Origin: Eledone cirrhosa
Lineage: Eukaryota
Reading direction: 5' to 3'
Assembly: GCA_964016885.1 (NCBI GenBank)
Contig: OZ024740.1
Span: forward strand, 201,314,001-201,378,000
DNA: 64,000 nt
Numbering within the stretch: position 1 is the stretch's first letter; every line of letters begins with the position of its first letter. Shown here in pieces: positions 2,853 to 57,376 of this stretch. The notes under the pieces were generated by a model. The model did no database searches, had not been told where the DNA came from, and saw only the letters and a program-made list of their open reading frames with translations. A program made the position numbers and the translations under genes.

Positions 2853-3060
2853 CGTAGGTCCCGGGTTGAGTCGGGGATAACCACAGTAAGTAAGGTACTC
2901 AATACATGGCAGAGTAAATTTTTTTTTATTTTATAGAAGGAGCTTCTACAGGACTAGTACTGTTTCATTCAGATGAAATCTTCAGATGAAAGCTTCCTGA
3001 AGATTTCATCTGAATGAAACAGTACTAGTCCTGTAGAAGCTCCTTCTATAAACTAAAATA
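2853..3060. mobile_element. Penelope-type pLTR/retrozyme fragment forming a 56-bp-arm palindrome in (TA)n
   Basis: Arms 2930-2985 and 2997-3052 are exact reverse complements. Each has CTGAAGA-ttca tc tgaa-GAAAC...GTC (hammerhead core lacking the stem I 5' strand). Flanked by (TA)n on both sides. Confidence 0.6.
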
Positions 3061-3419
3061 TATATATATATATATATATATATATATATATATATATATA
3101 TATATATATATATATTAATATATATTGATATATATTTATAAGTTTGTATTTGAATTTATCATTATATGTATTATCTTTATAATTTCGGTTTTGGTTCTCA
3201 AGTTGCGCTGACATGTGTTAACTCTTTTAGCATTTCAACAGTAATACTGAAGATAATCTGCAAACAGGTTGAAAGCACATGCCGATAAATACACACAGAT
3301 GTGTCACTACATATCTACAAACACACCTGCAGTTATTTGCGTATGTACGTACACTTTGTTGTGTTTGTGAGTCTGTGTGTGTGTGTGCTTCTGTGTTTAT
3401 GTGTGTCCACCTGCTTGCT

Positions 3420-4295
3420 AAATATATACATATATATATATATGTATATATATATATATATATATATATATATATATATATATATATATATATATATATA
3501 TATGTATATATGTATATGTATATATATATATGTATATATGTATATGTATATATATATATATGTATATATGTATATGTATATATATATATATATGTATATA
3601 TGTATATGTGTATATATATATATATGTATATATGTATATGTGTATATATATATATATGTATATATGTATATGTGTATATATATATATATGTTTGTGTGTA
3701 TATATGTGTGTGTGTATGTTTATATATATATATGTATGTATGTATATGTATATATGTATATATATATATATATATATATATCTACATATATATATATGTG
3801 TGTATATATGTATGTATATGTATATATATATGTATATGTATATATATATATATATATATATATATATATATATATTTATATATATGTATATATGTATACA
3901 TATATATATATTTGTGTATATATGTATGTATATGTATATATATATATATGTATATGTATGTATGTATATATATATATATATATATATATATATATATATA
4001 TATATATATATATACACATATATGCATGTGTGTATATATATATATATATACACATATATGCATATGTGTATATATATATATATATACACACACACACACA
4101 TATATATATACATATATATATATATATATATACATATATACATATATACATATATATATATATATATATATATATATATATATATATATATATATATATA
4201 TATATATATATATATACATACATATATATATACATACATACATACATACATACATACATACATACATACATACATACATACATATATATATATAC
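3420..4295. repeat. Long compound (TA)n/(TATG)n/(TACA)n microsatellite
   Basis: Directly visible; explains the YI/IY ORFs. Confidence 0.97.
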
Positions 4296-4384
4296 TTATA
4301 TTCTGCAGCACTGGATACTTCTCCTGCAAATATTCTATCGGAAAAGACAAGACTGACGTGAAAGCATTTCAAAATCGGATTACT

Positions 4385-4538
4385 GCCGACCACAGCCCCT
4401 CCCCTTCCACCTCACTTATCCAAGCCGACCACAGCCCCTCCCTTCCACCTCACTTATCCAAGCCGACCACAGCCCCTCCCCTTCCACCTCACTTATCCAA
4501 GCCGACCACAGCCCCTCCCTTCCACCTCACTTATCCAA
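4385..4538. repeat. 38-39-bp minisatellite, 4 copies
   Basis: GCCGACCACAGCCCCTCCCCTTCCACCTCACTTATCCAA at 4385, 4424, 4462 and 4501. Confidence 0.9.
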
Positions 4539-5882
4539 AACAAACAGATTATCCACCGAAAAGTTTCAACTAAATGTCTATATACCAGCAAAAACTTTTC
4601 CCTCGCCACTTATTTAGACTTGTTTTGGTGTTACTGTTGTTGTTGTTGCTATCATTGTTGGTGGTGGAGGGAGGATGGTGACGCGGGGGGGGGGGGGGGG
4701 TATGGTGGTGGTGGTGGTGGTGCTGGTGCTGGTAGAGATGGTGTTATTTGCTTTTATTTGGCTATCTTTACATACGTACGTTACATAGATATATGCATAC
4801 ATGCAGACATACACACACACACACACACACACACACACACACACACACACACGTATATAAACATAAATAAATATGTTTGTGTGCATTCATATATAAAAAC
4901 ATACATATATATATATATATATATATATATATATATATATATATATATATATATATATATACATACATATATATATATACATATATATATATATGTATGT
5001 ATATATATATACATATATACACACACATACACATACAAACATATATATGTGTGTGTGTGTACATATATGTGTACATATATATATACACTTGTACACATAC
5101 AAACATATATATATATATATATATATATATATATATATATATATATATATATATATATAGATAGAGAGAGAGAGAGAAAGAGAGAGAGAGAGAGAGAGAG
5201 AGAGAGAGAGAGAGAGAGAGAGAGAGAGAGAGAGATACATTACCTTCCTATTCTTTCCTTTTCCCCTCCCACTTCCCTCTCTCCCTCTCCTTATATCTTC
5301 TGATCACCACCACGTTATATGCAACTCCCTCCCCCTCTTCTTGCCTTCTTTTCACGCCACTTAGTTCGCTTGTCCACTTTCACTTTAACGGTCAAACATT
5401 TATTTCATAGGATGAAGCCGTACGGAACAGACCTGTTCTCTAACTTGGTGGTCGATGTAACACTTTTCTTATCTCATTCTCATTTCTTTCTTCTTTTACC
5501 CTACTTCGATAAAGGGTTTAACACGATCCATTAAACGTCAGATCCATTTTTTTTTTATTTTCATTCGGTGTAAATATATCCATTGTACATATTTTTATGT
5601 TTTTCTGCAAATATTTTGTCCACCAGGAGACTTATCTTTTCACATTGTTACCATGTTTTCGTCTCTCACACTGTTCAAATGTCTCTTTCATCTTATTTCC
5701 TTCGATCTATTTGTGTCGTTTTAACTGTATATACATATATGCATATGTGGAGAGAGATAGATAGAGAGAGAGAGAGAGAGAGAGAGAGAGAGAGAGAGAG
5801 AGAGAGAGAGAGAGAGAGAGAGACATACAGAGACACAATGAGAGAGAGAGACAGAGAGAGACAGAGACAGAGACAGAGAGAG

Positions 5883-6175
5883 AGGTTCTGCTGCACGTCG
5901 GGCTGAGGGGGCCAAACTCCTCAAATACCGGTCGCTCTCCGACAGGTTTGCGGTCGTTCCTCTGGCAGTGGAAACTTCTGGTGTCCTCGGCCCCAGGGCT
6001 ACCTCCTTATTCACCACCATAGGCGCTGAGCTGGTGTGAGCCCCGCGAGTTGGAGTGGCTTTTCCAGCGCGTCTCCCTTGCCGTCCTTCGGGGAAACGCC
6101 TTCTCCATTCTGTCCGCCGGGGCTGTGGGTGGGCCCCATCGCGTACCAATACATTAGTTAAATACCATTCTTTCA
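5883..6175 (+). pseudogene. 3' fragment of CRE-like (RLE endonuclease) non-LTR retrotransposon
   Basis: Translates GSAARRAEGAKLLKYRSLSDRFAVVPLAVETSGVLG (K..KY and PLAVET.G motifs of RLE domains). Paralogous to 41943-42270. Confidence 0.7.
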
Positions 6176-6214
6176 ACTTAAACAAAGCAGAGTTATGAAT
6201 TGATTCTCAGTGCA

Positions 6215-54790: not shown

Positions 54791-54884
54791 TATATATATG
54801 CATCTGCACTTATATATACATATAAACGGATACTCACATAAATCTCTTTCCATATATAGAGAGGAATGGTGATAGAAATCTTCA

Positions 54885-55550
54885 ACAACAGCAACAACAA
54901 CTACTACTACTACTACTACTACTACTACTACTACTACTATTACTACTACTATTACTACAACTACTACTGCTACTACTACAACTACTACTACCACTACCAC
55001 TACTAATATCACTACCACTATTACTACTACTACCACCACTACTACTACCAATACTACTACTACCACAACTACTACTACCATTACTACTACTACCACTACC
55101 ATTACTACCACTACTACAACTACCACCACCACTACTACCCCTATTACTACAACTACTATTACTACTACTACCACCAGCAACATCACTACTACTACTACTA
55201 CTACTACTACCACCACCACTACCACTACTACTACTACTACTACGACCACTACTACTACTACTACTACTACTACTACTACTACTACTACCACCACCACCAC
55301 TTACACTACTACTACTACTACCACCACCACAACCACTACTACTACTACTAGTACCACTACTACTACTACTACTACTACTACTACCAATACTACTACTACC
55401 ACTATCATTACTACCACTACTACCACCACCACCACTACTACCACTACTACTACAACAACTACTATTATTACTACTACCACCACCACCATCACCACCACTA
55501 CTACTACTACTACTAGTACTAATTGTTGCTGTTGCTGCTGCTACTGCTGT
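54885..55550. repeat. Degenerate (ACT/ACC)n microsatellite
   Basis: Directly visible. Confidence 0.95.
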
Positions 55551-56054
55551 AAGTTGACCGTGAAGAGAATTAATGAAGAAAACTCTGTCGTAAGCTATTG
55601 TGATCGGTTTAGTCTGTTTTGTTCTGTTTTTGTTTTTGTTGGGGATTTTTTCTATATTTCGTATTACTGTAGGTTGTGTGGACACGAGTTGATGGAAAGT
55701 CCTGATCGTATTGATGAGATGACAGAAAAGCAAAGAAAAATAACATTCTTATATATATTTCCCAGACAGATTGAGGGTTTAGAAAGAATTTCATGTTCAT
55801 CATAGAATCCTGGTTCTTATTAAGATCGTTGATTGTATTGTAAGCTGGGTTAAAGCAAGAGATTTCTTCTCTTCTGCATCGTTTTTTTTTTTCTCATTTT
55901 TACTTTTATTATTATTTCATTTTGATTTTATGTGTGTTATATTATTTTTGTTGCTGTTGTTGTTGTTCTTTTTGGTTTGTTTGTTTTTTTTTTTCTTTTT
56001 TTTACCCATTATCTTCTTGACATACGTTGCAGTGAGATCACTGAGACAGGGCTA

Positions 56055-56600
56055 TTATATATACATATATATACATATATATATATATATATATATATAT
56101 ATATATATATATATATATATATATATATATATATATATATGTGTGTGTGTGTGTGTGTGTGTGTGTGTGTGTGTGTGTGTGTGTGTGTGTGTGTGTATGT
56201 GTGTGTGTATATATATACCGATTTATATATATATATATACACAGATTAATATATATATGGATATATATATATATATATATATATATATATATATATACAT
56301 ACATATGTATATATATATATACATATATATACACAGATTAATATATATATGGATATATATATATATATATATATATATATATACATACATATGTATATAT
56401 ATATATACATATATATACATATGTATATATATATATATTTATTTATATATATATATATATATATATATATATATATATACATACATATGTATATATATAT
56501 ATATATATATATATATATACATACATATGTATATATATATATATATATATATATATATATATATATATATATATATATATATATATATATATATATATAT
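56055..56600. repeat. Compound (TA)n/(TG)n microsatellite
   Basis: Directly visible. Confidence 0.95.
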
Positions 56601-56649
56601 CAAGTAAGTATGTTTTGAAACAGTGAGCAGGTTTGAAATTAGAAAATAG

Positions 56650-56840
56650 AATAGCTTTCACCGTATTTTTGACTAAAGGAATTTTAGCCTGATAATGGGG
56701 TTTAGAACCCTCAGATAAATGGAAAAAGATGAGTATTGACGTACATGTACGTCAATACTCATCTTTTCCATTTATCTTAGGGTTCTAAACCCCATTATCA
56801 GGCTAAAATTCCTTTAGTCAAAAATATGGTGAAAGCTATT
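56650..56840. repeat. Spacerless ~95-bp-arm palindrome between (TA)n tracts
   Basis: Centre GTACA|TGTAC at 56741-56750. Arms match with about 3 differences. Confidence 0.92.
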
Positions 56841-57169
56841 ATATATATATATATATATATATATATATATGGGATATATATATATATATATATATATATA
56901 TATATATATATATATATATATATATATATATATATGGGATAACAAGTTATATATATATATATGGGATTGTAAGTTATGGTTATAGGTAATCCAGTTAGAT
57001 GTTATGAGTACTCCGCGTCGTAGATAGTTTTAACGTACGGCTTTGTTTGACTCAACAAGATGTTTCCATAGTTATGCAGCGAGTTCGCGGTAATTTCTAT
57101 GCAGGTTATACTTGGAGTAATAATAGTTAAAATAAGAAGAGTAACATGGTTGACTGTACAATAAGGGCT

Positions 57170-57376
57170 TTATTTAAATATGGATTTAGGGTGGTTAGAC
57201 TTGGTATCTACATAAATTAGTTTTTCGTTAGATTTATGAAAGGGTGTATAAATTTTAGAGTCTAGGTAAAGGATAGCATCAAGGAAGTTTACATTTTTAG
57301 TGTTTTGTCTATGGTGATACTTAAGTTGAAGTTTTTGAAAATTGTATGTAATAGTTTCCATATGAAACTCAATCAC
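57170..57376 (-). pseudogene. PLE reverse transcriptase C-terminal fragment (inverted)
   Basis: VNFLD...YTPFHKSNEKLIYVDTKSNHPKSIFK, typical of the PLE RT motif 7/thumb start. Confidence 0.8.

Follow-up and report, generated by a model that had tools for sequence, protein, structure and literature searches.

Closest described systems

Insertions of Penelope-like elements (PLEs) most frequently take a head-to-head form, for which self-priming by antisense has been proposed and which shows target-site duplications (TSDs) of 8–10 bp (PMC3846280). An inverted copy, a tail at one end only and (TA)n targets have also been described, with the mechanism called open (PMC8557442). For a purified PLE, Poseidon of Anolis, it was reported that both target strands are cut and extended, that two start sites of the reverse transcriptase (RT) bound the tail, that targets are AT-rich and that a dimer is predicted (PMC11167929), and animal non-LTR (long terminal repeat) retrozymes are built from units of 150–450 bp (PMC7229834). 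The present analysis concerns 64 kb of the genome of Eledone cirrhosa (contig OZ024740.1, positions 201,314,001 to 201,378,000; hereafter the window), in which PLE ends and retrozyme-like repeats lie as inverted pairs between (TA)n tracts. Counted over the genome, such pairs run with both tails outward, and as a rule their outer ends fall at two different fixed sites, X and Y, a footprint that probably reflects reverse transcription primed from both ends of the target. The window feature is real, strongly non-random and beyond chance.

A related layout is known from L1 elements. In twin priming, reportedly described by Ostertag and Kazazian in 2001, both target ends prime on the RNA, leaving an inverted 5' part, 3' ends facing outward and a join with microhomology; the second site is said to be a chance internal match and the arms are said not to overlap. 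Most copies found here have overlapping arms and a fixed second site, whereas the non-overlapping form is shared by the PLE in the window and a few copies of its family (family F). Contiguous, non-overlapping arms with a chance second site are accordingly seen in a minority only, comprising the window PLE, arms that consist of tail alone and some family F copies. For arms to overlap, one strand would have to be displaced, the RNA would have to be multimeric or circular, or two RNAs would have to be copied.

The head-to-head layout, the one-sided tail and the in-vitro extension of both strands are already published. An inverted, 5'-truncated copy arranged head-to-head with a tail at one end, as known for endonuclease-bearing PLEs and described for PLEs with inverted pseudo-LTRs (pLTRs; PMC3846280, PMC8557442), is also what is found in Eledone. 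The TSD, where visible, is of 8–10 bp there, and the one clear case here is of 9–12 bp, microsatellite targets hiding TSDs. The published tail measures 30–40 nt, in contrast to 74–160 nt here, and in the accessible text the shape is uncounted and ascribed to self-priming or to endonuclease (EN)-mediated resolution, whereas here it is counted and fold-back is excluded in many copies. With Poseidon (PMC11167929) the present copies share the AT-rich target and would have in common the cutting and extension of both strands, the two RT starts bounding the tail and the predicted dimer. The accessible part of that study draws no link to inverted pLTRs and reports no strand difference in start site, in contrast to the different sites at which the ends of an Eledone insertion lie. 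Animal non-LTR retrozymes (PMC7229834; bioRxiv 10.64898/2026.07.22.740005) correspond to the Eledone repeats as low-GC tandem arrays with type I hammerheads, for which mobilisation by PLEs was proposed; inverted two-arm insertions or fixed paired ends are not described in the accessible parts of these two sources.

Genome-wide orientation of the arms

The families are designated by letters, A and D being retrozyme-like tandem repeats, F and H PLE families, and B, C and E represented in the window by short stubs. The sense of each arm was set by type I hammerhead cores; in families B, F and H this sense agrees with an upstream GIY-YIG open reading frame (ORF) on the same strand. The species' own genome (3.0 Gb) was searched, each search scoring only the best 38–40 candidates. 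For seven PLE or retrozyme families 215 loci were parsed. Dropped were 20 that repeat an insertion already counted, are segmental duplicates or, in six cases, belong to a single long array with ends out of view. The 195 kept, including seven from the window, comprise 118 tail-out (head-to-head) copies, no tail-in copy and 77 single-arm copies. Equal numbers of tail-in and tail-out copies, which the original prediction had named as the result that would count against it, are not observed. Grouping by distance alone, applied to the 150 of 154 matches listed in the first search, gave 25 tail-out, no tail-in and 15 single loci out of 40, and crude scoring of two further families yielded no tail-in pair among 38 loci.

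The parse joins arms only where no TA tract lies between them and is blind to tail-in pairs that are separated by TA. Pairs of this kind which were inspected turned out to be separate insertions (window 13966–15322) or a mirror duplication of the flanks (locus L241). In the window, 13966–14545 and 14786–15322 look tail-in, and represent two separate copies, about 87% alike, with TA tracts between them. TA-like stretches in the references were masked, which splits two family F copies (169 and 179) that are inverted when unmasked and are tallied as single. Screening of single-arm loci for a very short, hidden second arm gave two convincing cases, and one more was recognised by eye.

Locus L241 is a long mirror duplication that includes the flanks and is centred on a TA tract, possibly an artefact of the assembly or a product of repair by fold-back at (TA)n. 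It is also the case that speaks for a later rearrangement, or an artefact of assembly, in unstable TA-rich DNA as the source of the inverted copies in general. This explanation is refuted by the strict polarity and the X/Y pairing, and the unique joins and the otherwise missing duplication of flanks, together with paired fixed ends in seven families, add to making it highly improbable.

Two fixed outer ends

Each family has its outer ends at two sites 3' of the ribozyme, Y lying 74–160 nt further 3' than X, and the interval between X and Y corresponds to the published tail. Automatic calling of the 118 inverted copies gave an X/Y pair in 106, XX in three, YY in one and one internal end in eight. 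Families whose query fixed no end show X/Y in 64 of 68 copies (Fisher p = 4.5e-14), and in families C and H, whose query contained the tail, the partner end is X in 23/23 and 6/6 copies. Crude counts for families G and I gave X/Y in 5/5 and 12/15. Either arm may be the longer one; in family A it is the Y arm in 21 copies and the X arm in 16.

Both sites are AT-rich, with TA or AT in the RNA at most of them, and short re-start duplications of the terminal motif are present at X ends as well as Y ends. This bears on the possibility that X and Y are resolution sites, where the endonuclease would cut an inverted intermediate, formed first, at two fixed positions before or during integration. EN-mediated resolution is the cause to which the one-sided tail has been ascribed (PMC8557442), and the AT-richness of X and Y is like that of PLE cut sites. 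In vitro, however, both tail boundaries map to RT start sites (PMC11167929), the re-start duplications fit initiation, and an origin for arms with mutually exclusive sequence (see below) would still be required, so that resolution appears improbable. Stalling of the Y arm at X was rejected as a further candidate, since inner ends lie near X in 6 of 37 Y arms and equally in 6 of 37 X arms.

Arm content and central joins

Arm content was compared in 62 X/Y copies of non-tandem families, using at least 15 nt of private sequence as threshold. The Y arm carries the tail, which is absent from the X arm, in 62 of 62 testable copies. In 23 of them the X arm in turn extends 5' by at least 15 nt more than the Y arm, so that each arm holds sequence absent from the other, and seven Y arms consist of nothing but the tail. 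Because of this mutually exclusive content neither arm can have been copied from the other in these copies, and fold-back, in which a cDNA (or antisense transcript) folds over at a palindrome and serves as its own template while a single target end primes, is excluded there. Palindromes at inverted junctions are interpreted in this way in PMC3846280, and fold-back would account for the inner ends that coincide in 33 of 62 copies, notably in families B and C, for the likeness of arms at the same locus and for several family I joins that fall on a palindromic word. Coincident inner ends, however, would also be expected if both cDNAs run off the 5' end of one RNA, and the loop-less join through a 4-nt palindrome at about 56745 in the window better suits the annealing of two like cDNA ends than a hairpin. 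In family A the inner ends are unrelated (3 of 37 pairs within 15 nt), and fold-back leaves the X/Y pairing without a reason. As a general route it is refuted, and as an explanation of the inverted copies we regard it as quite unlikely.

Among 117 parsed joins, 45 are clean, with a mean microhomology of 2.07 nt versus 0.77 nt in simulated joins, and 40 of 51 longer apparent inserts match element sequence. A fixed palindromic element that is copied as a unit was dropped, as the central joins differ among loci. Divergence is lower between the two arms at a locus than between arms at different loci, at 1.0 versus 5.4% in family A (n = 34) and 2.7 versus 7.6% in family B (n = 12).

The inner ends of families B, C and E cluster at one place per family, which in family C is situated just 5' of hammerhead helix I. 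These clusters may mark the RNA 5' end or an RT stop, and the choice of query contributes to them.

Target sites

(TA)4 or more starts within 20 nt of 212 of the 228 X and Y ends of inverted copies, compared with 322 of 2169 random places (15%), and the same holds for 29 of 77 single-arm 5' ends and one of eight internal ends. A single target allowed an empty-site comparison. Locus L085 lies in a non-microsatellite target with intact paralogs, which contain a short TA run, and its filled copy has a duplication of 9–12 bp that begins in this run. It is the one clear TSD among 118 copies; elsewhere a TSD would be hidden in TA. The original prediction had stated that no conventional TSD is visible, which describes the copies embedded in TA, probably because the microsatellite target conceals the duplication, but does not extend to L085. 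A blunt break fits less well than staggered nicks, to which the duplication at L085 points.

Part of the flanking microsatellite may be new, formed when the RT stuttered on starting or when the tract grew afterwards. In the extreme case, most of the flanking (TA)n would have been made at or after insertion, through later slippage or because the RT, like telomerase, stuttered on RNA that contains TA, rather than having been the target. That most X and Y sites have TA or AT in the RNA suits this explanation, as do 5 of 25 family F ends, at which (TC)n repeating the last bases of the element stands between element and TA, and the fact that no empty allele was seen. On the other hand, in 13 of 18 loci the TA arrays to the left and right agree in the strand bias of their interruptions, as the halves of one split array would, although this is not significant; the 5' ends of single-arm copies also adjoin TA (29/77, see above), the target paralog of L085 has a short TA run, and (TA)n targeting is published for Hydra and Naiad PLEs. 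A mostly secondary origin of the tracts is, on balance, quite improbable.

Insertions in the window

Six short sites, revealed by self-comparison and reading of the sequence, have a minus-sense arm on the left, a plus-sense arm on the right and (TA)n outside both. They are listed below together with an eighth site at 56601–56839, which is additional to those of the original prediction.

2853–3057: family C PLE-end stub; minus arm 2853–2985 with the Y (tail) end, plus arm 2991–3057 with the X end; 5-nt central insert, minimal hammerhead in each arm
10113–10442: family B stub; minus arm 10113–10273, Y end; plus arm 10278–10442, X end
10510–10896: family B stub; minus arm 10510–10744, Y end; plus arm 10738–10896, X end; hammerhead core at 10804; sequence private to each of the two arms
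10967–11315: family E stub; minus arm 10967–11128, Y end; plus arm 11129–11315, X end; plus arm extends 115 nt further 5' than minus arm
52913–54049: family A, retrozyme-like tandem hammerhead repeat with a unit of 467 nt; minus arm 52913–53612, Y end at 52913, comprising 1.5 units; plus arm 53610–54049, 440 nt, X end at 54049; Rfam HH9 matches at 53193–53264 (minus) and 53772–53843 (plus), both below gathering score
54070–54789: family D, tandem hammerhead repeat with a unit of 470 nt; minus arm 54070–54223, X end; plus arm 54225–54789, Y end; plus arm contains a fragment of another repeat at about 54657–54712
56601–56839: family I stub; Y end left, X end right; the join is a 4-nt self-complementary word

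The X/Y rule is obeyed by all seven originally listed sites, including a chimera with a Y end of family H and an X end of family F, and by the eighth. Of the seven tail-out insertions between (TA)n that had been predicted, six are confirmed as such, while the seventh (56960–60035) is tail-out but composed of two PLE families. The predicted 3-nt GTT microhomology at the switch in family A is borne out, the arms overlapping by GTT at 53610–53612.

The two family B stubs are about 93% alike and differ at diagnostic bases, for which reason a single duplicated insertion was dropped as an explanation; judged from these bases, they are likely separate insertions into the same TA tract. The tail of family D is a recurrent target of an element resembling a short interspersed element (SINE), which in several copies has inserted into one shared AT-rich position (window 54657–54712; L206, L213, L221). 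In family I a tRNA-Ser-like stretch is situated immediately upstream of the part present at 56601–56839 (L257:1439–1511, L254, L259, L263), and the family is tandem in some loci; it is a candidate tRNA-derived SINE moved by PLE proteins.

Further features of the window are as follows.

18157–32065: 21-nt unit repeated over 14 kb, the array containing open frames of kilobase length
33641–35286: 47-nt satellite within another element
43422–48857, minus strand: LTR retrotransposon; its LTRs of 463 bp are 96.8% alike and its gag-pol frames are broken
49016–49226 and 51560–51628: other inverted structures; a hammerhead-like core lies at 51254, minus strand

The composite PLE at 56960–60035

This tail-out site consists of the following parts.

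56963–57178, minus strand: 5'-truncated end of family H, the second PLE family; Y end abuts the TA tract
57177–57359, minus strand: inverted segment of family F with RT motif 7 and thumb; 5-nt insert at 57360–57364
57365–60035, plus strand: 5'-truncated family F PLE; linker and GIY-YIG ORF to 58520; decayed hammerhead in the 3' region near 59940–59995; X end abuts (TA)n

In the intact element the RT segment directly precedes 57365, as seen in 11 of 11 other copies, and together with the plus arm it forms an inversion of the L1 style with non-overlapping arms. The 5' part of family H was not found in the window, which would be accounted for by a template jump between two RNAs or by an insertion into H with loss of target. 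The chimera suggests that one arm may start on the RNA of another family and then switch to the position at which synthesis of the first cDNA had ended.

Family F encodes RT plus, at the C terminus, a GIY-YIG endonuclease in a single ORF, as endonuclease-bearing PLEs do. Its protein contains DKT, a CxCX5C linker, and CxxC and CxH near the end, and lacks a CCHH between GIY and YIG; by these motifs it matches the Hydra clade as defined in PMC8557442. An RWK motif was not seen in the 526 residues read, and Pfam searches gave nothing informative. The element appears to exceed 4 kb, an estimate from an incomplete element, versus a length of generally less than 3 kb in the Hydra clade.

Hammerheads and retrozyme-like repeats

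Inspection of families B, C, E, F and H revealed hammerhead cores with a palindromic helix III, located near the 3' end on the coding strand as in PLEs. An Rfam match (HH9, below gathering score) was obtained in family A only, and z-scores for hammerhead folding were not significant. The units of families A and D, of 467 and 470 nt with a GC content of 0.36 and 0.33, contain one type I hammerhead each, as retrozymes do; they are slightly longer than the published 150–450 bp and form arrays of up to 15 units. Both families show the full insertion footprint of a PLE, which supports PLE proteins as movers of animal retrozymes.

Probable coupled two-ended priming

What is observed, from the polarity of the arms and the pairing of their fixed ends to the bias in targets, the content of the arms and the type of join, is best explained by coupled two-ended (twin) target-primed reverse transcription into TA microsatellites with central end-joining, an explanation that we consider probable. 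The endonuclease of the element, probably as a dimer, would nick an AT-rich target on both strands, at positions about 10 bp from each other. Each free 3' end would be placed on a different start site of the RNA, X or Y, by pairing of at most 1–5 AT bases. Both cDNAs would then grow in the direction of the RNA 5' end, the template probably being a single RNA or several transcribed from one source copy, and their ends would be joined centrally, through microhomology-mediated end joining or a template jump, before the gaps are filled. A second cDNA that fails or remains very short would leave a single-arm copy.

Two-ended priming with central joining had been put forward in the original prediction and finds good, if indirect, support in the genome-wide footprint, but the ends are not equivalent, as one uses X and the other Y. 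The role of (TA)n as primer is reduced to AT microhomology of at most a few bases, and some of the microsatellite on the flanks may date from initiation or from growth thereafter.

Several observations weigh against coupled two-ended priming. Twelve of the 118 inverted copies are not X/Y, yet two of the XX copies are X/Y copies split by a later SINE, and the crude count for family I (n = 15) includes two YY and one XX. The coincident inner ends, together with an X arm nested in 6 of 62 copies, are likewise predicted by fold-back. Apparent inserted bases occur at 72 of 117 joins, a count inflated by single-nucleotide polymorphisms relative to the reference. The similarity of arms at one locus is not significant in families E (n = 6) and H (n = 5), family D provides only four copies, and gene conversion could be an alternative cause of the similarity. 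As the best-scoring matches of each search were used, young, long and well-matching copies are over-represented. No true empty allele was obtained, contigs from public reads at L055 and L154 being dominated by repeats with none bridging the site; a search for empty paralogs among the analysed loci gave matches only through TA or neighbouring elements. Finally, PMC11167929 saw no difference in start site between strands, coupling lying outside its tests.

In the open literature no paper was found that states twin priming for PLEs or unites these facts, though subscription papers or supplements may hold one. The footprint counts favour two-ended priming over the standing suggestion of self-priming (PMC3846280) and tie it to the in-vitro result for Poseidon (PMC11167929). 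For the existing in-vitro assay a sharp prediction follows, namely one X start and one Y start per insertion. Coupled two-ended priming thereby offers a testable explanation, on indirect genomic evidence, for a long-unexplained shape of PLEs.

In a stronger version, which we put forward tentatively and hold to be somewhat doubtful, integration of PLEs would be twin priming that is obligatorily asymmetric, the subunits of the dimer being seated at X and Y of one RNA. Both subunits would copy this RNA from nicks about 10 bp apart, and the Y-primed cDNA strand would displace the X-primed one. If this is true, the inverted pLTR with its one-sided tail would be the normal product of PLE integration and a separate primer for the second strand would not be needed.

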